Positions 3 to 15,657 of a stretch of 64,000 bases of DNA are shown here, in pieces (the first letter of the stretch is position 1; the number at the start of each line of letters is the position of its first letter). The DNA is taken from positions 1,337 through 65,336 of the forward strand of contig JBFHWX010000001.1 in NCBI GenBank assembly GCA_041599275.1, given 5' to 3'. The position numbers and the translations under genes were made by a program. Source of the DNA: Desulfobulbales bacterium. GTDB taxonomy: Bacteria > Desulfobacterota > Desulfobulbia > Desulfobulbales > BM004. A model generated the notes under the pieces. That model was not told the DNA's origin and ran no database searches. It worked only from the letters and a program-made list of their open reading frames with translations.

Positions 3-1244
3 GGCGGCAACTATATCCTGAACCAAGGCTCCCGCTGGGAACAGAGCACTTTCTGGGCCGATCTGGTCTTCTCCGGCCAAATCGGAGGCACATTCGACTG
101 TGGCGCCCGGCTTTATGGCGACCACCACGACATCGTGCCTTTCTGGGAACTCTTTCCGGCCGGCACCGTGCCCGGCTTCGCCGAAGGGGTGCTTGGCAGC
201 CCGCGCTCCAGGAACCGCACGGCAGGCATCGAATCGACCCTCAGCCGGCAGGTGGCAGAGCACCGGCTGACCGCCGGCCTGCAATTCGAGCACCGCGAAC
301 AGTTCGACGTCCGGCACCTGACCAACTTCAACCCCCTCACCGGCGCTCCCCTTGGACCATTGCAGGATGTCTCCGACCGCTTCAACTTCAACCGTGGGGC
401 CACACGGGCTCTGTGGGCCGTTTTCCTGCAGGATGTCTGGAACATTTCGGAAAAACTCGATCTTACCGCAGGGCTGCGCCACGACGTCTCTTCCGATTTC
501 GGTTCCACCACCAACCCGCGGCTCGGCCTGGTTTGGGAGGCAGGCCCCGGAACCCTGCTCAAACTTCTCTACGGCACCGGTTTCCGGGCTCCGGTCTTCT
601 ACGAGCTCTACCACCGCAACAATCCGTCCCAGATCGGCAACCCCGACCTGCGGCCGGAAACCGCACGGACATGGGAACTTGCCATCGAACACCGGCTGGC
701 CACCGGCATCTTGTTGAGCGCCAACCTCTATCACAACGAATTGGACGACATCATTGTTGAGGGCGAGAAACCGTCGGTAAACGAACCGGGGATGTACCAA
801 AACGGCGGCAGCCTGCGGGCCCGCGGCGTCGAAGCGGGCTTGAACCTGCAGCCCTTCCGGAGCCTGCAGTGCCAGCTTTCCTATGCCTACCAGGAGGTGG
901 AAAACGAGGATTCGGGCCGCACCGTGCCCGACGTGCCCCGCCAGCGGGCCAACCTCGGGCTCGACTTTTCAGGGCTTGAGCCGTTTCTGGTCCACCTGGA
1001 TCTCTTGTGGACCGGCGCACGACCCCGGGCCGCAGGCGCCCCCAGGCCGACCCTCGGCGACAGCCTGCTCACCGATCTCAGCATCTCCAGCGGCCAGATG
1101 TTCGGCCCCCTCGGCCTGCGGGTATCCGGGAAAAACATCTTCGCCACCAATCACTTCGACCCGAGCCCGGCCCCGGGCCTGGTGCCCGGCGACTACCCCT
1201 CGGCAGCCCGCAGTTTCCTCTTCGAGCTCACCTACACTTTCTGA
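3..1244 (+). CDS. TonB-dependent outer-membrane receptor, C-terminal portion (5' end outside window)
   Basis: The frame is open from the window edge, so listed ORF 135..1244 is only the Met-initiated part. Beta-barrel-type sequence with NPRLGLVWE..LLYGTGFRAP. Ends ..FELTYTF, with the terminal Phe typical of TBDRs. Confidence 0.8.
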   Translation, partial: GGNYILNQGSRWEQSTFWADLVFSGQIGGTFDCGARLYGDHHDIVPFWELFPAGTVPGFAEGVLGSPRSRNRTAGIESTLSRQVAEHRLTAGLQFEHREQFDVRHLTNFNPLTGAPLGPLQDVSDRFNFNRGATRALWAVFLQDVWNISEKLDLTAGLRHDVSSDFGSTTNPRLGLVWEAGPGTLLKLLYGTGFRAPVFYELYHRNNPSQIGNPDLRPETARTWELAIEHRLATGILLSANLYHNELDDIIVEGEKPSVNEPGMYQNGGSLRARGVEAGLNLQPFRSLQCQLSYAYQEVENEDSGRTVPDVPRQRANLGLDFSGLEPFLVHLDLLWTGARPRAAGAPRPTLGDSLLTDLSISSGQMFGPLGLRVSGKNIFATNHFDPSPAPGLVPGDYPSAARSFLFELTYTF

Positions 1245-1829: not shown

Positions 1830-2270
1830 TCAATCCGGTTCCGGCAGAGTGGCTCTGGCAAAACTCGCCACCCGCTCGCCGATGGCGAGAATCTGGCCGA
1901 TGGTCCCGGCGTCTGGAGCACGATGCTGAAAAGTGTCCAGATCGCAGAGTTCCTGGTAGGTGTCGAGGTGCTCCAAATCACGTCGAAGAGCGGGCTGCGG
2001 CCCGGTCACACCCTCAACCGCCCGGGCGAGATCGGTCATGGTATGGTTCTCGGGCAGGCAGCCATTGAACATGAGAAAGGCCATGAGCAGTTTCTCGCAG
2101 CCCATGGCCACCAGGTTGTAGACGGTTTCCGGGATGAAGACATCCGGCCGGCGTGCGTGGCCATTGGCCGCCGCCCGCAGATAGTCGCGGCCTTCTTTCA
2201 GATAGAGCGGCCAGCCCTCGATGACGGTGGACGGCCGGCGGTCGGCGATGGTGGTCTGCAACGGGTTCAT
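1830..2270 (-). CDS. HEPN-like hypothetical protein
   Basis: The MNPLQ start overlaps the GNAT stop as ATGA. All-helical sequence with a GCEKLLMAFL..H segment and an RRDLEH (R-x4-H) motif reminiscent of HEPN domains. The family call is weak. Confidence 0.45.
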   Translation of the reverse strand: MNPLQTTIADRRPSTVIEGWPLYLKEGRDYLRAAANGHARRPDVFIPETVYNLVAMGCEKLLMAFLMFNGCLPENHTMTDLARAVEGVTGPQPALRRDLEHLDTYQELCDLDTFQHRAPDAGTIGQILAIGERVASFARATLPEPD

Positions 2271-2761
2271 GTTTTTTTTCCTTTGCACCCGGCATGGCCG
2301 GTCTGAGAGGCAGGCCGCTGCCGCAGGCAGATGAGGGAGGTAAACTGCCAGCCCGTCTTTTCGTAAAACGCCAGGGCCGCGCCGTTGTTGCGGTCGGCCA
2401 GCAGCTGCAGCCGGCCGGCACCTTTTGCTGCAGCCCAGGCGGCGATTTCATCGAGCAGCCGGCGGCCGATGCCGCGCTGCCGAAAGCAGGCGGAAACCAC
2501 CACGTCCTCGACCAGCACCGCAGGCCCGCCTTCAGCGGTGGAGACCACCAGTTGGCCGCTAACCATGCCAACGGCCCTGTCCCCGTTTTCGGCCACCACG
2601 ACCCGGGCGAAGGGGTTGCCGAGCAGCAGCAGCAGGCCGCGGCGCTGCAGCTCGGCGTTGAAGGTGAAATCCTCCTCGATGGAGAAGAGCTCCGCCAGCA
2701 GTTCGACCAGGGCGTCGAGATCCTCCAGCCGGGCGGAGCGGAACAGGATGGTCTCGTTCAT
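2267..2761 (-). CDS. GNAT family N-acetyltransferase
   Basis: Starts MNETILFR (ATG at 2761). Acetyl-CoA binding motif VVSACFRQRGIGRRLLDE, and ..ALAFYEKTGW. Confidence 0.85.
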   Translation of the reverse strand: MNETILFRSARLEDLDALVELLAELFSIEEDFTFNAELQRRGLLLLLGNPFARVVVAENGDRAVGMVSGQLVVSTAEGGPAVLVEDVVVSACFRQRGIGRRLLDEIAAWAAAKGAGRLQLLADRNNGAALAFYEKTGWQFTSLICLRQRPASQTGHAGCKGKKT

Positions 2762-2769
2762 GCTCCGCC

Positions 2770-3072
2770 TCAGCCGATGCGATACCCGGCAGCCGGCGCA
2801 CCGTCCTCGAGGCCGTCGAGAATGGCGTCGATGGCCTCTTCGGAGTCCACCCCCTTGAACCACCAGTTCTCGGGCTGCACCACCATGATCGGACCTGACT
2901 CGCACTGCTTGAGGCAGGTGGTGGCGGTGACCAGACAGTCGAGGCCACGGTCGAGTATCTCTTCTTCCAGATATTGCAAAAAACCGTCGGTCTGTTTGTG
3001 GCAGATGCCCTTCTTGTCTCCTGCAACCCGGAAGCTCTGGCAGACGAGAATCTGTCGTGCGGGTGTTGCCAT
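2770..3072 (-). CDS. Thioredoxin-like [2Fe-2S] ferredoxin (nif-associated)
   Basis: 100 aa from MATPARQILVCQSF. Four Cys arranged as C-x(n)-C...C-x3-C (VCQS..GICH..TTCLKQCESGP), as in clostridial-type 2Fe ferredoxins. Confidence 0.8.
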   Translation of the reverse strand: MATPARQILVCQSFRVAGDKKGICHKQTDGFLQYLEEEILDRGLDCLVTATTCLKQCESGPIMVVQPENWWFKGVDSEEAIDAILDGLEDGAPAAGYRIG

Positions 3073-3130: not shown

Positions 3131-4270
3131 TTATTTTTTCCGTCGTTTTTGGGCCGTTCCGCTGAAATGCTCCAGCGCTCCGGTGATCTCGCCTTCAGCA
3201 ATGAGCACCGTGATGCCGTTATCGGCCAGTATTTTTTTCGGTTTGTCCCCGGCGCCGGCGGCAAGCAGCAGAAAGCAGTCGGCAAGGGTATCGGCCAAAA
3301 GCAGCCAGCGGGAATCGCCGCCCCCCGGTTCCGGTGCGGGTCGTGAGCCCAGCAGGCAGAAAAGCCCGTCCTCGCGGGGCCCGTAGACCAGAAACCGCAC
3401 CGCCTGGCCGAGATGGCAGTCAACCTCCATGCCGCTGGAGCTCGCCACCGCCACGTTCGGCCGATTTTTTTGGGGGGTCATCCCCCCTCCCCCTGCCCGG
3501 CTGGCTGTGGCCGCCACCACCAGCGACCGGCAGGGTTCGATGACCTTCAGGTAACGCGCCGCGGCGGTCCTGGCCCGGCCGATGAGATCGCAATCCACCA
3601 CTGAAACTTCTTCCGTACCGGCCGGCGGCCGGAAGGGCAGAACCACCATGGTGCTTGCCCCCAGTGGTGCCATGGCAGCGGCCACTGCCCCAGCCTGATC
3701 CTGATTCGCCCCTGGATAGAGGGTAAAAGCTATGGTCACCGGCAGCCCTGCCTGGCGGCAGGCGTCCACCGCCTTCGGCTGCTCTTCGAGCAGTACTTTT
3801 ACGGCCTCGGAGAGCGGCAGGTTTCTGGTGGAGGGCCGTATCCACTGATAGATTTTCTCCGCACTTTCAACCGACACCGCAGGAACGACAAGAGTCACCC
3901 CGGTACAGCCCCGGGCCGCGAATTCGGCAGCTCGCTCGGCCAATCCCAACCCCAGGGTGGTGACCGTTACCGGGTTAGCGCTGTAACAGCGCCGGATGCG
4001 GGCAACGAGTTCCAGGGAATTTTCCGGCGTGGCCAGCGGGTCACCGGGGCCGTGCAGGGCGATTTCGCAACCCGCCATCACCTCCGGACTCTCGGCCAGC
4101 CAGTCAAGAGCGTCGGCGGCCATCAGAGCCGGCTGCGGCTTGGCCTCACCGTCGAACCGGCTGCGGGCCACCGCCCGCACCGCCACCGGCAGCTCGACCC
4201 GCGCCCCCTCGGCCTCGCCGCCGCAGGAACAGCCGCCCCGGACCGGACCGGGAAAAGGTATGACCGTCAT
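3131..4270 (-). CDS. NifB-like protein (radical-SAM-like core plus C-terminal NifX/NifB-type cofactor-binding domain) lacking the CX3CX2C motif
   Basis: Collinear with NifB landmarks (LPVA.., HGPGDPLA, TTLGLGL, KIYQWI, C-terminal VAVASSSG..CHLGQA..F NifX-like domain). The segment where CNIQCNYC should lie reads VRAVARSRFDGE. Confidence 0.75.
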   Translation of the reverse strand: MTVIPFPGPVRGGCSCGGEAEGARVELPVAVRAVARSRFDGEAKPQPALMAADALDWLAESPEVMAGCEIALHGPGDPLATPENSLELVARIRRCYSANPVTVTTLGLGLAERAAEFAARGCTGVTLVVPAVSVESAEKIYQWIRPSTRNLPLSEAVKVLLEEQPKAVDACRQAGLPVTIAFTLYPGANQDQAGAVAAAMAPLGASTMVVLPFRPPAGTEEVSVVDCDLIGRARTAAARYLKVIEPCRSLVVAATASRAGGGGMTPQKNRPNVAVASSSGMEVDCHLGQAVRFLVYGPREDGLFCLLGSRPAPEPGGGDSRWLLLADTLADCFLLLAAGAGDKPKKILADNGITVLIAEGEITGALEHFSGTAQKRRKK

Positions 4271-4375
4271 GCTCTTGCTCCCTTTTCAATCGTAAAGCGG
4301 GGACAGATCTACTTTTTCAAAGAAAAAACAAAATCAGTCCCCTGCCGTCCCTTGCAGGAAAAGTTGTTGATTGAA

Positions 4376-4401
4376 GGCCGGGCAGGTCCCCCTGCCCGGC
4401 C
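4376..4401 (-). terminator. GC-rich hairpin just downstream of nifK (possible attenuator or mRNA-stabilising stem)
   Basis: Perfect 11-bp stem ggccgggcagg / cctgcccggcc with a 4-nt loop. The downstream tract on the minus strand is only moderately U-rich. Confidence 0.3.
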
Positions 4402-4425
4402 CACGTCTCACGTCTCACGTCTCAC
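4402..4425 (-). repeat. Tandem heptamer (cacgtct)x3 plus partial unit
   Basis: Read directly from the sequence: cacgtct cacgtct cacgtct cac. It lies between the nifK stop and the hairpin. Confidence 0.8.
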
Positions 4426-4444
4426 TTCTTCCTTCTCTCTGCTC

Positions 4445-5818
4445 CTACAGCACGAGTTCGAACTTCTGTTCCTGATCGTCCCGGTCCTTGCGGTCGAGCA
4501 GCACGCCGAGCATCTTTTCGAGAAGCCGCAGGCCGCCCTTGTAGCCCACTGTCGGGAAATACTGATGTCCCTGGCGATCGAGAATCGGAAACCCCCAGCG
4601 CACATACGGAATGTCTTCGTCGCGGGCGATGTACTTGCAGTATGTGTTGCCGATCAGCAGATCCACCGGCTCGTTCTTGATCCACTGATGGAGCAGGAAC
4701 ATATCGCCCTTGGCCCGGACGTTCACTTCGAACGGCATGTCCCTGGTGAGTTCCTTGATCCGCTTTTCAAAGGCGTTGCCCGGCGTGCCGGTGACCACGT
4801 GCACCGGGCACATGTCCATGGACACCAGGAACTCGGTCATGGCGATCAGTTGGTCCGGGTCACCGACCAGGGCCACCTTTTTGTGATAGGTGTACTGGTG
4901 CATATCGGAAATCATGTCGACGAGCTGGCCGCGTTCGTTGGTGATCTCTTCCGGTATGGTTACCCCGGCAATGGTCCGCAGGGCATCGATGAAGCGATCG
5001 GTGGCAGACAACCCAAACGGCATGTCGAGCACCGAGCACGGCACCTTGCACTTGGTGTCGAGCCAGCGGGCGGCATCGGCCGAGCACCACTCGCCAAGGG
5101 CCAGGGTACCAATGGAGTCGCCGGTTGATTTCAGTTCCTTCATGGTCACGCCACCTTCCGGGAACATCTTGTACTCGCCGGAAAGCGGTCCGTTCAGCAC
5201 GCCGGAGGTATCCGGAAAGAGGATGAAGCCGACGCCGATCAGGTTCACCAGGCGCTTGATCTCCTCCATGTCGGCGGGTTCCACCCAGCCGGGGATGATG
5301 TTGATCAAGCCGTTCTTCTTGCCGGTGGGCTCGGCCACCATGGCCATGGATTTGACCATGTTCGAAAACCCGGTGACATGCGAGCCGACGTAGCTCGGGG
5401 TGCTGGCGTAGATGACATCCTTGCCGGCCGGGATCTTGCCCTCGTTGGCCGCCTTGGTCTTGATCTGTTTCAGATCATCGCCGATGGTCTCGGACAGACA
5501 GGTGGTGTGCACGGCGATCACTTCGGGGTCATAGACCGAGAAGATGTTGCTGATCGCCTGCAGCATGTTGGCCTGACCGCCGAAGACCGAAGCACCTTCG
5601 GTGAACGAGCTGGTGGAGGCGGATATGGGCTCTTTGTAGTGCCTGGTCAAAGTGGAGCGATGGTAGGCGCAGCAGCCCTGGGAGCCGTGACTGTGCGGCA
5701 GGCAACCGTGGATGCCGAGCGCCGCGTACATGGCGCCGATGGGCTGGCAGGTCTTGGCCGGGTTGATGGTCAAGGCGCTGCGCTCGCTGATTTCTTTGGG
5801 TGTATGTCGAAGTAGCAT
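4445..5818 (-). CDS. nifK: Nitrogenase MoFe protein beta chain
   Basis: 457 aa. Motif CQPIGAMYAALGIHGCLPHSHGSQGCCAYHRS, the P-cluster ligand region. GAGG RBS. Follows nifD. Confidence 0.95.
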   Translation of the reverse strand: MLLRHTPKEISERSALTINPAKTCQPIGAMYAALGIHGCLPHSHGSQGCCAYHRSTLTRHYKEPISASTSSFTEGASVFGGQANMLQAISNIFSVYDPEVIAVHTTCLSETIGDDLKQIKTKAANEGKIPAGKDVIYASTPSYVGSHVTGFSNMVKSMAMVAEPTGKKNGLINIIPGWVEPADMEEIKRLVNLIGVGFILFPDTSGVLNGPLSGEYKMFPEGGVTMKELKSTGDSIGTLALGEWCSADAARWLDTKCKVPCSVLDMPFGLSATDRFIDALRTIAGVTIPEEITNERGQLVDMISDMHQYTYHKKVALVGDPDQLIAMTEFLVSMDMCPVHVVTGTPGNAFEKRIKELTRDMPFEVNVRAKGDMFLLHQWIKNEPVDLLIGNTYCKYIARDEDIPYVRWGFPILDRQGHQYFPTVGYKGGLRLLEKMLGVLLDRKDRDDQEQKFELVL

Positions 5819-6019: not shown

Positions 6020-7660
6020 CTATTCCCACTGATAGGTGGCGGAGAGCTGCGGGTTCTGCTGCCAGGGGGCCTTCATGTAGCCCCAGACCTTGCTGTTCAC
6101 CAAGCGGTCGATCTCCTTGTAGAAATTGATCGCGCCTTTGAACCCGGCATAGGGGCCGCCGGAATCGTAGGAATGGAGTTGCTTCATGGGCACGCCGAGC
6201 TTCTGGATGGAGAACTTCTCCTTGATGCCGGCGCAGAAGATATCCGGCTTCATCAGCTCCACCAGTTTCTCCGCTTCGTACTGGTTGAGATCGTCGATGA
6301 TCAGGGTGCCCTTGTCCATGTCCGGGGCGAGTCCGTCGTAGTGCTTGAAGGCGTAGCCGCTTTCTTCGAGCTTTTTCATTTCTGCATCACTCTTGCGCGG
6401 CTTGAACCGGGTCTCGTCGGGCTCCACCTCGATCTCCTCGATGTTGCGGCTGTCGGCATCCACGGTGAGATTCGGGATCACCTGGCGGCCTTCGTAGTCG
6501 TCACGGTGGCCGAACTCGTAGCCCGCCGAAATGGTCTTCATCCCCAGTTCGTCAAAGAGCTCCTTGTAATGGTGGGCCCGGGATCCGCCCACGAACATCA
6601 TGGCGGTCTTGCCCGCGGTGCGCGGCAGGATCTCTTGAATTGCCGCCTCCACCTCGGGCATCTCCTCGGCGATCACCGCCTCCACCCGCTCGATGAGGGC
6701 CTGGTCGCCGAAATACTCGGCAATCTTGCGCAAACTCTTGGCCGTGGCCTTGGCGCCGATGAAGTTCACCTTGATCCAGGGAATGCCGAACTTGGTTTCC
6801 AGCATGTCGGCCACGTAATTGATCGACCGGTGGCACATGACCGCGTTCAGGTCCGCCTGGTGGGCCGAGGCGAACTGGTCGTAGGTCGAGTTGCCGGAAA
6901 AGGTGGAGATACAGGTGATGCCGCATTTATGAAAGATCCGGTCGATCTCGAAACCGTCGCCGCCGATGTTGTACTCACCGAGCAGATTGATCTTGTACTC
7001 GCCCTCCTTGGGCACGTCGTTCTCGCCCACGATGTGGCGGAACACCTGGTTGTTGGCGATGTGGTGGCCGGCGGACTGGCTAACCCCCTTGTAGCCCTCG
7101 CAGGAGAAGGCATAGACGTTGCAGTCGCCGAACTTGTCCTTCATCCGCTTGCTCACCGTGTGGATGTCGTCGCCTATGAGCCCCACCGGGCAGGTGGCGA
7201 AAACGGCGATGGACTTCGGGTGAAAGAGGTCGTAGGCCTCCTGGATCGCGGCTTCGAGCTTTTTTTCGCCGCCGAAGATGATGTCCGAGTCCTGCATGTC
7301 GGTGGAGAAGCAGTAGTTCATATAGTTCTCGCCGTCCGGGCCGGCATCGGTCTGGTTGCGGCGGGTGAGCCAGGCGTAGAACGAGCAGCCGATGGGGCCG
7401 TGGACGAGATTGACGATGTCCCGGGTCGGGCCCATGATCACGCCCTTGCAGCCGGCGTAGGTACAGCCGCGCATGGTGATGATGCCCGGCGTGGTCCGCA
7501 CGTTGGCGGTGATCTCCGGGGTCTCGTTTTCAAGCGCCTCGTTGATCATGATCTGCCTGGCGCGCTTGCGGGCCACCTTGGCAGGGTATTTCTCGAGAAG
7601 CTGGGCCTTGACCTCGGCCGGGTCCCACTGCACCAGCTTTTCCTTGTTTGTCGTTGCCAT
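6020..7660 (-). CDS. nifD: Nitrogenase MoFe protein alpha chain
   Basis: 546 aa. Motifs HGPIGCSFYAW and VMCHRSINY (FeMo-co Cys ligand motif). AAGGAGA RBS. Long form typical of anaerobe-type NifD. Confidence 0.95.
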   Translation of the reverse strand: MATTNKEKLVQWDPAEVKAQLLEKYPAKVARKRARQIMINEALENETPEITANVRTTPGIITMRGCTYAGCKGVIMGPTRDIVNLVHGPIGCSFYAWLTRRNQTDAGPDGENYMNYCFSTDMQDSDIIFGGEKKLEAAIQEAYDLFHPKSIAVFATCPVGLIGDDIHTVSKRMKDKFGDCNVYAFSCEGYKGVSQSAGHHIANNQVFRHIVGENDVPKEGEYKINLLGEYNIGGDGFEIDRIFHKCGITCISTFSGNSTYDQFASAHQADLNAVMCHRSINYVADMLETKFGIPWIKVNFIGAKATAKSLRKIAEYFGDQALIERVEAVIAEEMPEVEAAIQEILPRTAGKTAMMFVGGSRAHHYKELFDELGMKTISAGYEFGHRDDYEGRQVIPNLTVDADSRNIEEIEVEPDETRFKPRKSDAEMKKLEESGYAFKHYDGLAPDMDKGTLIIDDLNQYEAEKLVELMKPDIFCAGIKEKFSIQKLGVPMKQLHSYDSGGPYAGFKGAINFYKEIDRLVNSKVWGYMKAPWQQNPQLSATYQWE

Positions 7661-7678: not shown

Positions 7679-8053
7679 TTAGGCTATCGCCTTGGCACCC
7701 TTCTCGCCTGTACGCACCCGCACCGCATCGCCCAAAGGCACGACGAAGATCTTGCCGTCGCCCGGCTTGCCGGTCTGGTTGGCGGCAATGAGCGCCTGCA
7801 CCACTTCCTTCACCTGTTTGTCCGGTACCACCGCGGTCACCATCCGTTTCGGGTAGAGTTGCCCCTTGCCGCCCAGGAGAGAAGCGGCTTCCTCGTAGCC
7901 CTGGCGCGCTCCGGCCAGCACCTGCGGGTTGGCAAAGCCCACCCCGCGGCCATGGGCCTCGTGGGCGAAAAAGGCGTCGATGCCGCAATCGGTGAGGGCC
8001 TGTTTGGTCTGGTTCATCATATTGATGCGCACAATGGCGATGACCTCTTTCAT
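7679..8053 (-). CDS. nifI2: PII-like nitrogenase regulator NifI2
   Basis: 124-aa GlnB-family fold (..GKPGDGKIFV..) with an extended T-loop. Located between nifH and nifD. Confidence 0.85.
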   Translation of the reverse strand: MKEVIAIVRINMMNQTKQALTDCGIDAFFAHEAHGRGVGFANPQVLAGARQGYEEAASLLGGKGQLYPKRMVTAVVPDKQVKEVVQALIAANQTGKPGDGKIFVVPLGDAVRVRTGEKGAKAIA

Positions 8054-8406
8054 GCCGGCACCCCCTCGGCTGCGTATTGGGTTTCCTTGACCCCGGAACT
8101 GATGGTGTAGGACTCTTCCACCGGGCTGACAAAGATCTTGCCGTCGCCAAAGGCGCCCTTGCCCTTCGAGCGGGCGGTCTTCATCACCGTGTCGATGAAG
8201 AAATCCTTGTCCGCCTCGTTTATCACGCTCAGCAGCATGACCTTGGGGATTTCGTCGTAGGTCACTTCCCCGATCTTGATGCCCCGCTGCTTGCCGCGGC
8301 CGGCCACCGAGTATTTTGTAACCGCCGGAAACCCCGCATCCATGAGGGCGGCAAGGACGTTATCAACTTTTTCTGGCCTGACAATCGATCGAATCATGAT
8401 TAGCAT
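8050..8406 (-). CDS. nifI1: PII-like nitrogenase regulator NifI1
   Basis: 118 aa from MLIMIRSIVRPEKV (ATG at 8406, with an RBS). GlnB family (GAFGDGKIFVSPVE). The long N-terminal extension of ORF 8050..9036 overlaps nifH and is rejected. Confidence 0.85.
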   Translation of the reverse strand: MLIMIRSIVRPEKVDNVLAALMDAGFPAVTKYSVAGRGKQRGIKIGEVTYDEIPKVMLLSVINEADKDFFIDTVMKTARSKGKGAFGDGKIFVSPVEESYTISSGVKETQYAAEGVPA

Positions 8407-8450: not shown

Positions 8451-9434
<984 letters not shown>

Positions 9435-9508
9435 TTACATTCACATACAAATCAGCTAATTACTGAAAATCAGACTGACTTTCGAGCTCTCCAGGCCTGT
9501 TCATTGTC

Positions 9509-9554
9509 CGGCACAATTCTGTACACCAGAAAGCTTCGGCACAATTATGTACAC
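9509..9554. repeat. Two 18-bp direct repeats CGGCACAATT(C/A)TGTACAC, 28 bp apart, in the nifH/nifA divergent region
   Basis: Copies at 9509-9526 and 9537-9554 differ at one base. Each contains an inverted GYACA-N4-TGTRC core. Confidence 0.85.
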
Positions 9555-9667
9555 AAAGAGAATATTTTTTCTAAAAAATACCAAAAATGTAAATCGCCGA
9601 CAGTGACAAACCCACAGCCATAATGTATCTTACCAAAATAACAGTAAAAAAAGATTACACCCTGGCA

Positions 9668-9684
9668 GGTCTCGGATTTGCATT
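9668..9684 (+). promoter_or_regulatory. Weak sigma54-like promoter candidate for the nifA-like gene
   Basis: aGGtctcggatttGCatt has correct GG-N10-GC spacing and a good -12 TTGCA. The -24 box is poor. Confidence 0.3.
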
Positions 9685-9737
9685 TACCAGTGCCAGGCCA
9701 GGCAACACCCGCAATTCCACATAAGGAAATTTCCCCC

Positions 9738-11333
9738 ATGAAACCGTGCGGCACCACGACACCCTTTCCGAAAAACACCCTGATCACCACCGAGGTCATC
9801 GAACTGCAGGCTTTGTTCGAAATCGCCCAGCTCATCGGCTCGGCCCATGACCTCACCACCACCCTGAACCGGGTGCTCCGGGTCCTGCACGACATCCTGC
9901 GCATGGAGCGCGCCACCCTTTCCCTCATCGCCGGTGAGCAGGACCGTCTGGTGATCCGCGCCTCCTACGGCCTGTCCGACGCCGAGAAGAACCGCGGCGT
10001 CTACCGGCTGAACGAGGGGATAACCGGAAAAATCTTCCAGAGCCGCTCGCCCTTCGTGGTGCCGGACATCGGCTCCGAGCCGCTCTTCCTGAACAAGACC
10101 GGCTCCCGCAGCATCGCCAAGGAAAAACTTTCCTTCATCGGCGTGCCGGTGTTCATCGCCCAGGAAGTGGTGGGTGTGCTCACCGTGGACCGGCTCTTCG
10201 GGCTCGAGATCTCTTTTGAAGAAGACGTGCGTTTCCTGTCGGTCTGCGCCACGCTAATCGGCCAGTTCCTGCAACTGAACCGGGCCATCGCCCGAAAGCA
10301 CGAGATGCTGCGGGAAGAAAACATCTGTCTGCGCGAGCAGCTCAAGAGCCGCTACAGCCACCCCAACATCATCGGCCAGGGCAAGGTCATGCAGGAGGTG
10401 TTCCGGGCCATCGAAAAGGTGGCGCCCTCCCTTGCCACCGTGCTGGTGCTTGGCGAATCCGGCACCGGCAAGGAGCTGGTGGCCCGGGCCATCCACCAGG
10501 CGAGCAGCCGAAGCGATAGGCCTTTCGTCAAGGTGAACTGCGCGGCGCTTCCCGAAAATCTGCTGGAGTCCGAACTTCTCGGCCACGAAAAGGGCGCCTT
10601 CACCGGGGCGCATGCCATGAAGAAGGGGCGCTTCGAGCTGGCCGACACCGGCACTCTCTTTCTCGATGAAGTGGGGGAACTGCCGCTTGACCTGCAGGCC
10701 AAGCTTTTGCGGGTATTACAGGAAAGGCAGTTCGAGCGGTTGGGCGGCACGAAGACGATCAAGGTCGACGTGCGGTTGGTTGCCGCCACCAACCGCAGCC
10801 TGCAGGAGGCCGTGGCCCAGGGCGATTTTCGCCTCGACCTCTACTACCGGTTGAACGTGGTGCCCATGCTGTTGCCGCCGCTCCGCGACCGGCCCGAGGA
10901 CATTCCACTGCTTCTCGACCACTTCCTGCGGGAGAGCAATCACCGCAACCTCAGGAAGACCAGGATGACCAGCGAGGTGGTGAGCTTTCTCTCCTCCTAC
11001 GACTGGCCGGGCAACGTGCGCGAGCTCGAAAACCTGGTGGAGCGGTTGGTGATCATGGCGGACAACGATCTGGTGCGGCTTGCCGACCTTCCGGTATTCA
11101 TGACCGCCGAACCGGAGCGGCCGGTTCGGCCTGTTCCGGCTCAGATCGGGGCCGCGCCTGCTTCCGGAGACGGCGGCCACGGTGCAAGGCACCTGCAGGA
11201 TCTGGAAAGAGCGGAGGTGGAAGCGGCGCTCCGCCGCCACGGCTGGGTACAGTCGCGGGCCGCCCGGGAACTGGGGATCACCCGGCGGCAGATGGGCTAC
11301 CGGATCAAAAAATATGACCTGAAACCTTCGTAA
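9738..11333 (+). CDS. nifA: sigma54-dependent transcriptional activator, NifA-like (GAF + AAA+ + HTH)
   Basis: ATG at 9738 after AAGGAAA. N-terminal GAF domain, Walker [15 protein letters not shown] motif, C-terminal [22 protein letters not shown]. Divergent from nifH. Confidence 0.8.
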
Positions 11334-11363: not shown

Positions 11364-12497
11364 TCAGATCTCCTCGGCGGCGATGGCGGCAAGCTCCGCG
11401 TCATCGAGGGGCCGGCTGCAGCGCCGGGAGAGATCCCGCACCCGCGAAAGGGCTCTTTCGAGACTTTCCCTGGAGAGAAAAATACCAAGTCTGCCAAGCG
11501 TTGCGGCCAGGGCGGCGCGGCCGCTCTTGCCGCCCACCAGCAGCCTGCGGCTGCTCCCCACCCGTTCCGGCGCGTAGGGTTCGTAGGTCTTCGGGTCTTT
11601 GTACAGTCCCTGCAGATGCAGGCCACTCTCACAGGTAAAGATGTTTTCGCCTACCAGCGGATGCTGGGGAGAAATTGAGCGGCCGGAAGCCGCCGCCACC
11701 GCCGCGCAGAGATTTTTCAAAATCTCGGTTCGGTACTGTCTTGCTCCGCCGGCCGGCCCCGGCCCCAGGGCAAGGTACCCCACCACCTCCTCGAGCCGGG
11801 CGTTGCCGGCCCGCTCACCGAGCCCCAGCACGGTAACGTCGGCCCAGTCGGCGCCGGCCTCCAGGGCCGACAGCGCATTGGCCGTGGCCATGCCGAAATC
11901 GTTGTGGGTATGCACCCCAACCTCGATGGATGCCGCCTTCTTCAACCGCCCCACCCGTTCAACGATGCCAGCCGGGGTACCGATCCCCACCGTATCGGCA
12001 AGCCGTACCCTGCTGGCACCGCTGCGGGCCGCCACCCTGGCCAGTTCCTCGAGGAAACGCGCCTCGGCCCTGGTGCCGTCCTCCAACCCGACCGAGATCC
12101 TCGTAATCCCCAGAGAACGGCCGAGCCGCACGCCGCTGGAAAGCATGGCCCGCACTCCATCCCGGTCGCTGCGCAGCTTTTCGCGGATGTGAAGGTCGGA
12201 GCTCGGGATCGACAGGTTGAGAACATCGGGGGCCAGAGAGGCGGCGAACCGGATATCCTCCTCCCGGCAGCGGCACCAGAGGGCGAGGCGGCTCGCCGCC
12301 CCGTCGCCAACCAGTACCCGGGCCGCGTTCATCAACGAAGGAAGCGCTCCATCGCGCCGGGTTGCCACCCCAAGCTCGATCTCCTCAATCCCCAATGCCA
12401 GAAGCCGGTGGACAACTGCCACTTTCTCCGGCAGCCCGAAACCGACCCCCGGAGTCTGTTCTCCTTCGCGCAACGTAGTGTCGACGAGTCCAAGCAT
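11364..12497 (-). CDS. nifV: Homocitrate synthase
   Basis: Motifs DTTLREGEQTPGV and HTHNDFGMATANAL of the HMGL-like family. GGAGGA RBS. nif context. Confidence 0.85.
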   Translation of the reverse strand: MLGLVDTTLREGEQTPGVGFGLPEKVAVVHRLLALGIEEIELGVATRRDGALPSLMNAARVLVGDGAASRLALWCRCREEDIRFAASLAPDVLNLSIPSSDLHIREKLRSDRDGVRAMLSSGVRLGRSLGITRISVGLEDGTRAEARFLEELARVAARSGASRVRLADTVGIGTPAGIVERVGRLKKAASIEVGVHTHNDFGMATANALSALEAGADWADVTVLGLGERAGNARLEEVVGYLALGPGPAGGARQYRTEILKNLCAAVAAASGRSISPQHPLVGENIFTCESGLHLQGLYKDPKTYEPYAPERVGSSRRLLVGGKSGRAALAATLGRLGIFLSRESLERALSRVRDLSRRCSRPLDDAELAAIAAEEI

Positions 12498-12581
12498 GGT
12501 GCGTTCCTCCGGATTTTTTCTGAAAAACTGAGACCGTTCCCGACAGGACCGCCGCTTCCGCGCCGGTCACTTTTTTCTGTT

Positions 12582-12597
12582 TGCAACCGCCGAGCCA
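12582..12597 (-). promoter_or_regulatory. sigma54-type promoter for nifV
   Basis: The minus strand reads TGGCTC-GGCGG-TTGCA, one mismatch to TGGCAC-N5-TTGCA. It lies 85 nt upstream of the nifV ATG. Confidence 0.65.
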
Positions 12598-12673
12598 GCC
12601 CAGAACACCCCATCTTTTCACAATCACATCGGGGAGAAACACACAAAGAACAAGGAAGCACCGCAGCGCCGCC

Positions 12674-12705
12674 AAAAAAAATGTCCGCACAAAAATGTGC
12701 GGACA
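12674..12705 (-). terminator. Rho-independent terminator after the receiver gene
   Basis: Perfect 10-bp stem tgtccgcaca / tgtgcggaca with loop aaaa. An A8 run on the plus strand gives a U-run after the stem on the minus strand. Confidence 0.7.
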
Positions 12706-12925
12706 CGACAAAAAGGAACACGCCCTTGCTTCAACCTGACCAAGCCTTCCGACAAACACATCAACCCGTCAGGAAAGAACGGCCGGTTTTTTCCAGGACC
12801 TCTTCAATCCCTTTCCTTCTCCGCCCGGACCTTTGTGCTCCTCCGGAACGGAACTACACGGAAAACGGTTTCTGCCCAAAAATACTCACCGCGTTTGGCG
12901 AACCTCGACCGGGAAAACCATTTTG

Positions 12926-13312
12926 TTATAAATTCCGCTTCTCTCCATGCTTTTCCAGAATACCCCGGATCTCCGCCATCACCATGGTCGGGTCGATGGG
13001 CTTCTCGATATAGCCGTTGCAGCCGGCGGCCAGCAACCGCTCGCGGTCGCCGCTCATGGCGTAGGAGGTCATGGCGATGACGGGAATGGAGCCGTTGGCT
13101 TCGGAGGAGCGGATCCGCTTCAGCACCTCGTAGCCGTCGATGTCCGGCAACTGGATGTCGAGAATGACGAAATCCGGCCGCTCGGCAAGAACCCGTTCGA
13201 CGCCCTTTTCGCCGGTCTCCGCTCCCACCGTGTCGATCCCGTTCTTGTTGAGGATAAGACAGATGAGCGCCATGTTGTCCGGCGTGTCTTCGATGACGAG
13301 TGCTTTTGTCAT
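12926..13312 (-). CDS. Single-domain response regulator (CheY-like receiver)
   Basis: MTKALVIEDTPDN..FVILDIQLPDIDG..AMTSYAM..KP. ATG at 13312 with an AAGGAA RBS; the listed ORF start at 13333 is a TTG. Confidence 0.85.
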   Translation of the reverse strand: MTKALVIEDTPDNMALICLILNKNGIDTVGAETGEKGVERVLAERPDFVILDIQLPDIDGYEVLKRIRSSEANGSIPVIAMTSYAMSGDRERLLAAGCNGYIEKPIDPTMVMAEIRGILEKHGEKRNL

Positions 13313-13356
13313 GGATGTTTCCTTGTTTTTCAAACCGCCCGCCAGGGCGTTCTTGC

Positions 13357-13384
13357 CCTTTAGCCTTTACCCTTTACCCTTTAG
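13357..13384 (-). repeat. Four tandem heptads (C/G)TAAAGG (minus-strand sense) in the kinase-receiver spacer
   Basis: The plus strand reads cctttag cctttac cctttac cctttag, with degenerate flanking units. A similar array lies at 28353-28380. Confidence 0.85.
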
Positions 13385-15657
13385 CCTTCCTGCCCCAAAT
13401 CCATCGGCACCCGGAGCCAGAAGCGGCTGCCACGGCCCTCTTCGCTCTCCACCCCCACCTCGCCGCCCAGCACCTCGACGGCCAGCTTCTTGGTGAGATA
13501 GAGCCCCAAGCCGGTGCCGGGCACCGCGGTCATGAGTGGGGTTTCGAGGCGCACGAAGGAGCCGAAGAGCCGGGGCAAATCTTCCTCCTTGATGCCGATG
13601 CCGGTATCACTGACGCTGATCTCCACCGAGCCCGCCACCGTTTCCCGGTCCGTCGTTCCGGTTTCAGTCTGCCCCTTCGCAACAACGGTCACCGTGCCCT
13701 GTTCGGAAAACTTCACCGCGTTGCTCAGATAGTTGAGCAAACACTGCAGAAGACGCTTACGGTCGGTGCGCAGCGTAACCCTCCCCTCGGGCAACCGCAT
13801 GACGATCTCGAGTCCCTTTTCCTCGGCCTGCCGGCGGACCTGGCCCACTGCCTCGTCCAGCAGGCCCTTGAGTTCGAACTCCTCGGCATGGGGCGTGATC
13901 TTGCCGCTCTCGATCTTGGCGATGTCGATGACGTCGGTAATCAGCGAGAGCAGATGCTTGCCGGCCCGGAAGATGCGGCCCAGGTGCTCGCGCTGGTCGT
14001 CGGTTATCTCGCCGCCCATGCCCTGCAGCATGACCCCGGAAAAACCGATGATGGAGTTCAGTGGCGTGCGCAGCTCGTGGCTCATGCTCGCGATGAACAT
14101 GGATTTCAAGCGGTCGAGCTCCTGGAGCCGTTCGTTGGCCAGACCAAGCTCCCGGGTCTTGTCGTTGAGGTCCTCGACGATGTTGACCAACGCCAACTGG
14201 CTGCGCCGCAGGTCTTCGCCACGCATCTCGAACTCCCTGGTGCGCTCCGCCACCCGCACCTCCAGTTCCTGGTTCAGTCGGCGAAGCTCTTCCTCCATGA
14301 ACTTACGGGTCTCGATGTCCTGGATGACCGAAATGAAATATTTCGGATCTCCCGAGGACTCGCGCAGAAGAGACACGGTAAGCTCGATCCAGACCAGGGA
14401 GCCGTCCTTGCGGACGTAGCGCTTCTCCATGGAATAGGTGGCAATGGAACCGGCCAGAAGCTGGCGGACGTTGTCGAGATCGGCGTCCAGATCGTCGGGG
14501 TGGGTGATATCCTGGAAGGTAAGACCCAGCAGTTCCCCGCGGGGATAGCCGACGATATCGCAGAGCCGCTGGTTGACCGCCAGCCACTTGCCGTCGAGCC
14601 CCACCTGGGCAAAGCCCACCGCCGCCTGCTCGAAGAGACCGCGAAAGCGCTCCTCGCTTTCCCGCAACGCCTCCTCGGCATGTTTGCGGTCGGTGATGTC
14701 GAGGAGAACGCTCAAAAAATAGTGCTGCTTCTGGAGCTCGACGCTTTCACCGGAGATCAGGCAGTTGGCCACGCTGCCGCCCTTCCGGTAAAAATCCGCT
14801 TCCATGGCGAGCACCTTTCCCTGCTGCCGCAGTAACCCGAGAAAACGGTCGCGCTCCAAGGGCTCCACCCACATGCCGAGCTCCACCGTGGTACGCCCGG
14901 AGATCTCTTCCCTGGTGTAGCCACTCAGGCTTAGAAAGGAGTCGTTGACCTCGATGAACTGGCCCGTCGATGCGTCGGTGAGGGCGATGGCGTCGGGGCT
15001 GCTACGGAAGGCGGCGGCGAATTTTTCCTCGGACAGGCGCAGGGCCTCGTCCATGCGTTTCCGCTCCGAAATGTCCTCCGCCGAGGACCAGATGAACTGC
15101 TCGCCGCCCCGCTCCACCAGCAGGCCCTGGAGGCGCACCGGCACCAGGTGGCCGGCCTTGTGGATGTATTCCTTCTCGTAGGGGCCATAGCGTCCGCTGG
15201 CGTGCAGACTCTCGAGTTGGCGGGCCTCCTGGTCGGCGTACTTCTTGGGCGTGATGTCCCAGTAGGAGAGCCCGAGGGTCTCGTCCACCGTGCGGCCGAT
15301 GATCGCTCCATAGGCCGGGTTGACTTCCACCAGGGAGCCGTCCATGCGGCAGAGGGCAAGCCCCAGGGGCAACTGGGCCATGAGGCGGCGGGCTGATCTT
15401 TCCTCTTCCTGCCGGGCGAGGCGCGACCTTTCGAGACGATTGGCCATGCCCCGGATAAGGACGTAGAGCAGAACGGCGGTGACCAGGACATAGAACCAGC
15501 CCTTGAAAGTCTGCACCCGGGTGAGCAGGTCTGCATCCTTGACGAACCAGAGCACGATGGAGTCGGAAAAGAGGATCCACATGACACCAGAGAGGGCGTA
15601 GAGCACCACGATCACAAGTGGGCTCAACCGGTCTCTTTTCTCCTGGCTGCCGTTCAT
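13381..15657 (-). CDS. Membrane-anchored multi-PAS sensor histidine kinase
   Basis: Two N-terminal TM helices, three PAS-like segments, H-box SHELRTPLNSIIGFS, and an ATPase with GTGLGLYLTKKL. ATG at 15657. Confidence 0.85.
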   Translation of the reverse strand: MNGSQEKRDRLSPLVIVVLYALSGVMWILFSDSIVLWFVKDADLLTRVQTFKGWFYVLVTAVLLYVLIRGMANRLERSRLARQEEERSARRLMAQLPLGLALCRMDGSLVEVNPAYGAIIGRTVDETLGLSYWDITPKKYADQEARQLESLHASGRYGPYEKEYIHKAGHLVPVRLQGLLVERGGEQFIWSSAEDISERKRMDEALRLSEEKFAAAFRSSPDAIALTDASTGQFIEVNDSFLSLSGYTREEISGRTTVELGMWVEPLERDRFLGLLRQQGKVLAMEADFYRKGGSVANCLISGESVELQKQHYFLSVLLDITDRKHAEEALRESEERFRGLFEQAAVGFAQVGLDGKWLAVNQRLCDIVGYPRGELLGLTFQDITHPDDLDADLDNVRQLLAGSIATYSMEKRYVRKDGSLVWIELTVSLLRESSGDPKYFISVIQDIETRKFMEEELRRLNQELEVRVAERTREFEMRGEDLRRSQLALVNIVEDLNDKTRELGLANERLQELDRLKSMFIASMSHELRTPLNSIIGFSGVMLQGMGGEITDDQREHLGRIFRAGKHLLSLITDVIDIAKIESGKITPHAEEFELKGLLDEAVGQVRRQAEEKGLEIVMRLPEGRVTLRTDRKRLLQCLLNYLSNAVKFSEQGTVTVVAKGQTETGTTDRETVAGSVEISVSDTGIGIKEEDLPRLFGSFVRLETPLMTAVPGTGLGLYLTKKLAVEVLGGEVGVESEEGRGSRFWLRVPMDLGQEG

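Follow-up and report, generated by a model that had tools for sequence, protein, structure and literature searches.

A conserved family of NifB-like proteins without catalytic cysteine residues as candidate carriers of nitrogenase cofactors in sulfate-reducing and cable bacteria

In a 64,000-nucleotide stretch of DNA from a Desulfobulbales bacterium (assembly GCA_041599275.1, contig JBFHWX010000001.1, positions 1,337 to 65,336 of the forward strand), which we call the window and whose own numbering is used throughout, the gene following nifK encodes a paralogue of the protein NifB in which the cysteine residues of the radical S-adenosylmethionine (SAM) site are missing. For this Cys-less paralogue and its family, we use the working name psNifB. 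As described below, there is strong evidence for the existence of a large and previously unstudied family of such proteins in sulfate-reducing and cable bacteria, whose members are predicted to be catalytically dead and in which the NifX-like domain contains an invariant histidine. On balance, we favor the view that psNifB is a non-catalytic, NifB-derived carrier or chaperone of the NifB cofactor (NifB-co) or of FeMo-co (iron-molybdenum cofactor), which stands in for NifX or NafY.

Results

psNifB shares the sequence and fold of NifB

The gene and the regions of its product are located as follows:

3131-4270, minus strand: psNifB, complete coding sequence (CDS) of 379 residues plus stop codon, ATG start, uninterrupted open reading frame (ORF)
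4211-4270, minus strand: disordered N-terminal tail, residues 1-20, with Cys14 and Cys16 (GGCSCGG), the counterpart of the HPC region of NifB
4145-4192, minus strand: degenerate radical-SAM cluster loop LPVAVRAVARSRFDGE, residues 27-42, at the site of LPVAPxCNIxCNxCNRKxDC in NifB
3521-4210, minus strand: NifB-type radical-SAM partial TIM barrel, residues 21-250, with a predicted local distance difference test score (pLDDT) mostly above 90
3461-3520, minus strand: variable low-confidence linker, residues 251-270, which occupies the position of the HCxxCRADAxG motif of NifB
3161-3460, minus strand: NifX-like (Nitro_FeMo-Co) domain, residues 271-370
3413-3415, minus strand: codon of His286, within the NifX-like domain
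3134-3160, minus strand: basic C-terminal tail, residues 371-379 (GTAQKRRKK; family consensus GGGKKGK)

The start codon is preceded by a Shine-Dalgarno sequence (GGGAG), a distance of 174 nucleotides separates the gene from nifK, and the N-terminus (MTVIPFP) agrees with the consensus of the family. The relationship to NifB is reflected in sequence, profile and structure comparisons. Residues 48-249 match the NifB chains 7bi7, 7jmb and 7jma of the PDB with an E-value of 6e-17, and the protein is recognized by the NCBIfam model of NifB (TIGR01290) with an E-value of 4.5e-20 and 71.8 bits, a score that is below the curated equivalog cut-off of 343.65. Pfam assigns residues 280-369 to the NifX-type family Nitro_FeMo-Co (PF02579; 31.3 bits compared to a gathering threshold of 26.3, E-value 2.5e-7), and the score obtained with its Radical_SAM family (PF04055) is, at 18.6 bits, under the cut-off of 29.5. 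A model of psNifB generated by AlphaFold2 from an alignment of 113 family sequences shows a mean pLDDT of 82, with residues 21-250 mostly above 90 and strands that alternate with helices. In a Foldseek search with this model, NifB chains, which derive from four PDB entries, take the first five places (E-values of about 1e-18, target template modelling scores of 0.72-0.90), and the next radical-SAM enzymes follow with E-values of 1e-9 or weaker.

psNifB is thus a relative of NifB, well above the level of chance, and the layout of a partial TIM barrel of the NifB type followed by a NifX-like domain is present in the protein as found by Foldseek and Pfam. The candidate explanation of a plain, mis-annotated NifX was rejected, since a confidently folded NifB-type barrel of 230 residues precedes the NifX-like domain. 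An initial inspection of the letters and the translated ORFs (the sequence-only reading) had already described the product as collinear with NifB, which is borne out by the comparisons at all three levels. The strings on which it relied (ELPVA, HGPGDPLA, TTLGLGL and AEKIYQWI) were all located in the ORF on the minus strand, and so was the stretch at the site of the NifB motif, which is indeed free of cysteines and reads LPVAVRAVARSRFDGE.

The catalytic sites of NifB have been lost

The loss and retention of residues was followed in an alignment of 83 psNifB members with 24 canonical NifBs of the same loci, for which we use the numbering of Desulfovibrio ferrophilus NifB. All three cysteines of the radical-SAM cluster are replaced in psNifB, and the motif CX3CX2C is found in none of the 86 family copies examined, a number that counts the window and a few duplicates. 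A ten-residue deletion takes out the segment DCVNESRPGV including the cysteine of the flexible loop, which is deleted in all 83 members, and the C-terminal motif HCxxCRADAxG is absent from the family. A cysteine of the barrel (C112) is retained in 16 of 83 members, exclusively from the Desulfovibrionaceae, with a Thr at this position in the window protein. At the column aligned with the HPC motif, 67 of the 83 members carry a Cys; the window protein contains a Gly there, with its own two cysteines alongside. The K1 and K2 clusters of NifB are accommodated by its N-terminus, by this loop and by the stretch at its C-terminus (PMC10701300).

When positions that are invariant among Desulfobacterota NifBs are used as reference, the number of those kept by the psNifB family amounts to 0 of 23 for the radical-SAM and flexible loops, 4 of 22 for the region of the C-terminal (K2) motif, 17 of 65 for the core of the barrel and 17 of 28 for the NifX-like domain. 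Among the residues retained in the barrel are GPGDP, W-x-R, Q and PGxN (W143-x-R145-P146, Q164 and PGxN189 in the window protein), and the family-invariant motifs of the NifX-like domain include RPNVAV, D-x-H-L-G-Q-A, YGPREDGL, RW and DCF. Because the radical-SAM cysteines, the loop cysteine and the CxxCRADA motif are gone, psNifB is predicted to be catalytically dead, able neither to cleave SAM nor to synthesize NifB-co.

The loss of the radical-SAM cysteines had been recognized in the sequence-only reading, which understated its extent, as the cysteine segment of the flexible loop and the C-terminal CxxCRADA motif have disappeared as well. It had also considered that a sequencing error or an alternative start might restore CX3CX2C, which turned out not to be the case for any frame or start, and the relatives are all without the motif. 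An error, a frameshift and an alternative start were rejected, since the motif is absent from all three frames of 3900-4450 and since an in-frame stop, located six codons 5' of the ATG, excludes an N-terminal extension.

A putative cofactor-ligating histidine is invariant in the NifX-like domain

His286, which is part of the motif D-x-H-L-G, is invariant in all 83 members. Pairwise alignments, which are weak (E-values of 0.011 to 0.79), though collinear, place it opposite His35 in the NifX of Azotobacter vinelandii (9ian, chain E) and opposite the histidine of the HFG sequence in the core of NafY (1p90). In a structure of NifEN-NifX reported from cryo-electron microscopy in 2026, His35 of NifX ligates an apical iron of NifB-co (PMC13128457). 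The same work describes the histidine as common to NifX, NafY, VnfX and the C-terminal domain of NifB, and NifY and NafX, which are without it, as members that are not expected to bind NifB-co (PMC13128457). Judged from its sequence, the NifX-like domain of psNifB may thus constitute a cofactor-binding module whose ligand histidine is intact.

psNifB forms a widespread family under purifying selection

When 5.8 billion proteins were searched, 468 matches were obtained, the best 120 of which are about 380 residues long and 40-51% identical to the psNifB of the window; among these 120, the named sources are Desulfobulbaceae, Desulfovibrionaceae or 'Thermodesulfobacteriota'. Relatives were found in 274 species in a scan of one genome per species, where the named ones all belong to the Desulfobulbia or the Desulfovibrionaceae, and 80 loci were retrieved for inspection. 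A profile of the family obtained 1,508 matches among 1.84 billion representatives clustered at 50% identity, where ranks 1-56 are occupied by Cys-less proteins and canonical NifB is not encountered before rank 57. The full-length sequences in the top 150 comprise 63 Cys-less and 41 canonical proteins, which sets a lower bound of 63 for the full-length Cys-less clusters at this identity. A neighbour-joining tree, from which truncated sequences were left out and whose distances were capped, places 62 of 63 Cys-less sequences in a single clade devoid of canonical NifB, and in 78% of bootstrap replicates at least 90% of the Cys-less sequences group together. The tree agrees with one ancient loss, after which the Cys-less form was retained for long, at a node that is not strongly resolved.

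The selection acting on the family was quantified by the ratio of nonsynonymous to synonymous substitution rates (dN/dS) in 60 moderately diverged pairs of psNifB orthologues and, for other genes, in 8 to 59 of those pairs, with the following medians:

psNifB, whole protein: 0.21
psNifB, barrel (N) domain: 0.215
psNifB, NifX-like (C) domain: 0.114
canonical NifB: 0.13 (8 pairs)
NifK: 0.06
ferredoxin encoded 3' of psNifB: 0.057
GNAT acetyltransferase encoded downstream of psNifB: 0.17

Both domains of psNifB are therefore constrained by purifying selection, which is looser than in core nif proteins. It would be conceivable that the copy in this particular genome is decaying under relaxed selection, or that its missing motif is an artefact of assembly or sequencing, an explanation that we consider highly improbable. 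It draws on the divergence of the window copy, which shares the rank of most divergent among the 86 copies, with 87 of 101 near-invariant positions retained compared to a median of 97, on its particular differences, which include the change of LPVAP to LPVAV and an altered GGGKKGK tail, on a best identity of 47-51% to any relative and on the origin of the 65.7-kb contig from a metagenome-type assembly. However, the ORF is intact over its full length, its start and its Shine-Dalgarno sequence are proper, the motif occurs in no other frame and all 35 family-invariant residues, including His286, are retained. Moreover, the protein is collinear with its relatives, and since these are all without the motif, the loss can be accounted for without assuming an error. 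Equally, low identity is usual at this distance of NifK, where the median is 48% and the minimum 40%.

Of the two alternatives left by the sequence-only reading, a degenerating gene finds no support in general, in light of an intact ORF, a dN/dS of 0.21 and strict synteny over 82 loci. The other, a non-catalytic NifB paralogue, is supported by the conservation of a syntenic Cys-less family that is under purifying selection and that coexists with canonical nifB.

psNifB is part of a conserved gene module

The window contains the following genes on either side of psNifB:

4445-5818, minus strand: nifK
6020-7660, minus strand: nifD
7679-8053, minus strand: P-II gene nifI2
8050-8403, minus strand: P-II gene nifI1
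8451-9278, minus strand: nifH, whose product is 96% identical to NifH of Desulfobulbaceae UBA5121
9678-11333, plus strand: nifA
11364-12497: nifV, homocitrate synthase
2770-3072, minus strand: thioredoxin-like [2Fe-2S] ferredoxin of 100 residues
2267-2749, minus strand: GNAT acetyltransferase
1830-2288, minus strand: orf152, encoding 152 residues and overlapping the stop codon of the GNAT gene

The question of whether Cys-less orthologues are conserved beside nifK in related genomes, which had been raised along with the sequence-only reading, can be answered affirmatively, as nifK is located immediately 5' of psNifB in 68 of the 72 loci with sufficient upstream flank. The remaining four belong to the cable bacteria Ca. 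Electrothrix and Ca. Electronema or are cable-bacteria-like. On its 3' side, psNifB is followed by the ferredoxin gene in 81 of 81 loci, a GNAT gene is found downstream in 53 of 64, and orf152, for which no match was obtained in Pfam or NCBIfam, comes after the GNAT gene in 60 related loci. psNifB, ferredoxin, GNAT and orf152 thus make up a conserved module, and the small ORF at 1520-1732 has counterparts in 21 loci. The ferredoxin matches Fd4 of Aquifex (1F37) with an E-value of 3e-7 and the NCBIfam models of clostridial and Azotobacter 2Fe-2S ferredoxins at scores below their cut-offs, and it gave no match in Pfam at an E-value of 0.01 or better. With identities of 72-93% and a dN/dS of 0.057, it is much more conserved than psNifB.

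The coupling to a [2Fe-2S] ferredoxin gene in each of the 81 loci would be in line with a protein that binds an Fe-S cluster by itself, via its N-terminal cysteine motif, Cys305, Cys332 and arginine-lined remnants of the old sites, and that acts as store or donor of a [4Fe-4S] or K/L-type cluster or as redox partner of the ferredoxin. This function, which we regard as quite improbable, could account for the cysteine at the HPC-equivalent position in 67 of 83 members, for CC, CxC or CCC motifs in many of them and for the conservation of Cys332, which is invariant, and of Cys305, which is conserved to at least 90%. In NifB, the HPC cysteine contacts the K clusters (PMC10701300). However, four members (L052, L055, L074 and L085) contain three cysteines in total, which is too few for a conserved site with four cysteine ligands, and the tail at the N-terminus varies among members, with disorder as its predicted state. 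The cysteine of the DC motif is also invariant in the NifX-like domain that NifB carries, and NifX proteins carry a similar D-x-C motif, in which the cysteine is not known as a ligand.

Canonical nifB is located within 10 kb of psNifB in 24 of the 49 loci that have at least 9 kb of downstream flank. It usually comes after nifE and nifN and its motif CNI(Q/K)CN(Y/F)C is always intact, with Desulfovibrio ferrophilus showing the order nifH-I1-I2-D-K-psNifB-Fd-GNAT-nifE-nifN-nifB. In the window, nifE, nifN and canonical nifB were not detected by tblastn using NifE, NifN and NifB of Desulfovibrio ferrophilus as queries, and the sequence-only reading was thus correct in its view that nifE and nifN are missing from this stretch. 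The psNifB clusters are almost always without nifX in the 10 kb to either side: a search with a profile of the C domains of NifB-type proteins, which a distant NifX could escape, identified a further stand-alone NifX-like ORF in only one of 86 loci, and nifN and nifB are contiguous.

The presence of canonical nifB in the same cluster in about half of these loci (24 of 49) would be expected if psNifB were its non-catalytic partner in a heterodimer of pseudoenzyme and enzyme, where it would stabilize or regulate NifB or receive its product, and where the NifX-like domain would serve only as exit port. Such a role, which we judge to be rather unlikely, would explain why the barrel is conserved and under purifying selection (dN/dS of 0.215) and it would agree with the retention of W-x-R, Q and PGxN, which are specific to NifB and not generic features of radical-SAM proteins, and with NifB as by far the closest fold. 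The activation of a live enzyme by its dead paralogue is a well-known phenomenon (for instance, PMC5201418). In contrast, it is nifK and the ferredoxin gene to which psNifB is linked and not nifB, which is often several kb away or beyond the 10-kb flank.

The cable bacteria deserve separate mention. In five of their loci (L045, L058, L064, L073 and L078), the available upstream flank contains no nifHDK, and in Ca. Electrothrix laxa (L045, 9914-12385), the one locus in which this flank was read, the module of psNifB, ferredoxin, GNAT and orf152 adjoins the divergently transcribed genes amtB and glnK. Cable bacteria have been reported to have NifHDK (PMC10030654).

On the plasmid pDV1 of Desulfovibrio vulgaris Hildenborough, no psNifB was found, with the best tblastn match, at 29% identity, falling on the canonical NifB region, and the ferredoxin gene is located directly 3' of nifK. 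The gene table of pDV1 (L086) holds no full-length CDS in the region of canonical nifB (8901-10196), where its only entry is a 97-residue 'NifB/NifX family' CDS at 8901-9194 and where the tblastn match at 9480-10196 coincides with no annotated feature; no CDS is listed either at 11972-14308, the expected site of nifE. These gaps possibly reflect the omission of pseudogenes or of genes without protein accessions. In three long proteins from the profile search, P0255 (638 residues), P0258 (799 residues) and P0264 (1076 residues), a C-terminal canonical NifB module follows after 176, 365 and 676 residues, respectively, and the start of P0264 resembles NifN or NifK. By their sequence, they look like fusions of the NifN-NifB type that are unrelated to the Cys-less family.

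Just past the nif accessory module, the window contains one more gene:

135-1244, plus strand: ORF of a TonB-dependent receptor beta-barrel, whose match begins at profile position 123, so that the true start may be upstream and possibly outside of the window

Transcription context

The non-coding region upstream of psNifB shows several structured elements:

4271-4444, minus strand: spacer between nifK and psNifB
4376-4401: strong, perfect GC-rich hairpin of 26 nucleotides
4403-4423: three tandem copies of the heptamer ACGTCTC, adjoining the GC-rich hairpin
4361-4338: terminator-like hairpin with U tract

The RNA fold of the spacer has a z-score of -3.75, and no match to a sigma-54 or sigma-70 promoter was found within it. 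The spacer may act as an attenuation or mRNA-stability element, and it is plausible that transcripts reading through from the promoter of nifH would supply psNifB, at a level reduced by the hairpins after nifK. A sigma-54-like site, TGGCACGAACCTTGAT (TGGCAC-N5-TTGAT), is located at 9405-9420 on the minus strand, about 130 nucleotides upstream of nifH and facing the divergent nifA. Across the window, the sigma-54 pattern with one mismatch is matched seven times compared to a mean of 4.7 by chance and thus not above chance.

Discussion

The properties of psNifB described in this study suggest a protein that has abandoned the chemistry of NifB and kept a capacity to interact with its product. Since psNifB would be devoid of NifB chemistry, since its most conserved part is a NifX-like module with the ligand in place and since a stand-alone NifX is rare in its vicinity, we favor its assignment as a cofactor carrier, for which we infer the binding of the cofactor, the binding partners and the direction of transfer. 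In such a carrier, His286 would ligate an apical iron atom of the cluster and the dead barrel, together with the basic C-terminal tail, would dock toward NifB, NifEN or apo-NifDK. In this way, psNifB might take on the job of NifX, NafY or both in the nif clusters of Desulfobulbia and Desulfovibrionaceae. The parts that this mechanism would involve, namely the NifB-shaped barrel, the NifX-like domain with His286 and the basic tail, are preserved by selection.

Several observations weigh against an assignment as carrier. The canonical NifBs of the same genomes carry their own NifX-like domain including the histidine, and an extra carrier is thus not obviously needed. Equally, a barrel of 230 residues would be needless for a pure carrier, and its preservation under selection hints at a further role. 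psNifB also evolves fast, its identity being typically about 48% when that of NifK is 86-90%, its module is separated from nifHDK in cable bacteria, and the profile used in the search for stand-alone NifX might have missed a distant homologue. Finally, our literature search found no functional study and no expression, fitness or biochemical data for the family; a study of D. vulgaris Hildenborough by randomly barcoded transposon sequencing (RB-TnSeq) is uninformative in this respect, because this strain is without the gene.

The role of psNifB could be extended to a more far-reaching scenario, which we consider doubtful. In this scenario, the barrel would retain the product cavity of NifB, which, together with His286 and the N-terminal cysteine, would cage one L-cluster or FeMo-co. 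psNifB would then be the sole trafficking and storage protein of the anaerobic cofactor pathway in Desulfobulbia and Desulfovibrionaceae, where it would work with the ferredoxin and the GNAT protein and take the place of both NifX and NafY, and sulfate reducers and cable bacteria might depend on it to fix nitrogen.

The comparison with known systems illustrates the composite character of the protein. With NifB (6Y1X, 7JMA/7JMB, 7BI7), psNifB shares the combination of a barrel and a NifX-like domain, the location in nif clusters, and the motifs LPVAP, GPGDP, W-x-R, Q and PGxN, to which most members add an N-terminal cysteine. It differs by the absence of CX3CX2C, of the loop cysteine, of HCxxCRADAxG and of the C-terminal Cys-rich tail, which would exclude a function as SAM-dependent, carbide-inserting enzyme, and by its coexistence with a true NifB. 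NifX, which shuttles NifB-co to NifEN (9IAN, chain E), resembles psNifB in its Nitro_FeMo-Co domain and in the motif D-x-H-(F/L)-G, whose histidine ligates NifB-co in NifX, and both proteins contain a C-terminal extension as possible tether. However, NifX is a single domain of about 158 residues that ends in two helices and that is encoded after nifEN, whereas in psNifB, which is encoded after nifK, a dead-enzyme domain of 250 residues is placed in front and the tail is a short basic peptide. NafY, the insertase of FeMo-co and chaperone of apo-NifDK (core 1P90), shares the cofactor-binding histidine with psNifB, but its N-terminal domain is a small domain of the sterile alpha motif type, unrelated to radical-SAM barrels. 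The position of psNifB right after nifK recalls that of nifY, which Klebsiella and Azotobacter carry downstream of nifHDK(T), whereas the NifY protein is without the histidine that psNifB keeps. As in other pseudoenzymes derived from active paralogues, the fold has been kept and the catalytic ligands have been lost, in a protein that is under purifying selection and that coexists with its counterpart in the same pathway.

We are not aware of a previous account of such a protein, as a search of the literature for an earlier description of a dead radical-SAM NifB found none. In a genome paper on Pseudodesulfovibrio, both genes are drawn as nifB_1 and nifB_2 (PMC11505543), and a survey of NifB diversity dropped 28% of the annotated NifBs, mostly without Cx3Cx2C, as mis-annotated NifX (PMC5715403). 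In databases, members of the family carry the names 'nitrogen fixation protein NifB', 'radical SAM protein' and 'NifB/NifX family molybdenum-iron cluster-binding protein'. Since automatic annotation thus assigns them as NifB or radical SAM protein, a protein without catalytic function can be scored as nifB in surveys of diazotrophy that rely on a minimal nif set.

Collectively, our study has provided strong evidence for a family in which what appears to be a cofactor-binding protein of the NifX family is built on a dead NifB, and for which we infer the mechanism. NifB, NifX and NafY are central to the understanding of cofactor assembly in nitrogenase and to its transfer into other hosts. In this respect, a NifB that is maintained by selection without catalysis but with the histidine constitutes a natural experiment, in which a role as scaffold or holder of the product can be distinguished from the chemistry of the enzyme. 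Such a protein also indicates that cofactor trafficking may be arranged differently in cable bacteria and in sulfate reducers living anaerobically, which rank as major diazotrophs of sediments. The strict co-occurrence of psNifB with a thioredoxin-like [2Fe-2S] ferredoxin, a GNAT protein and a 152-residue protein defines a putative accessory module.

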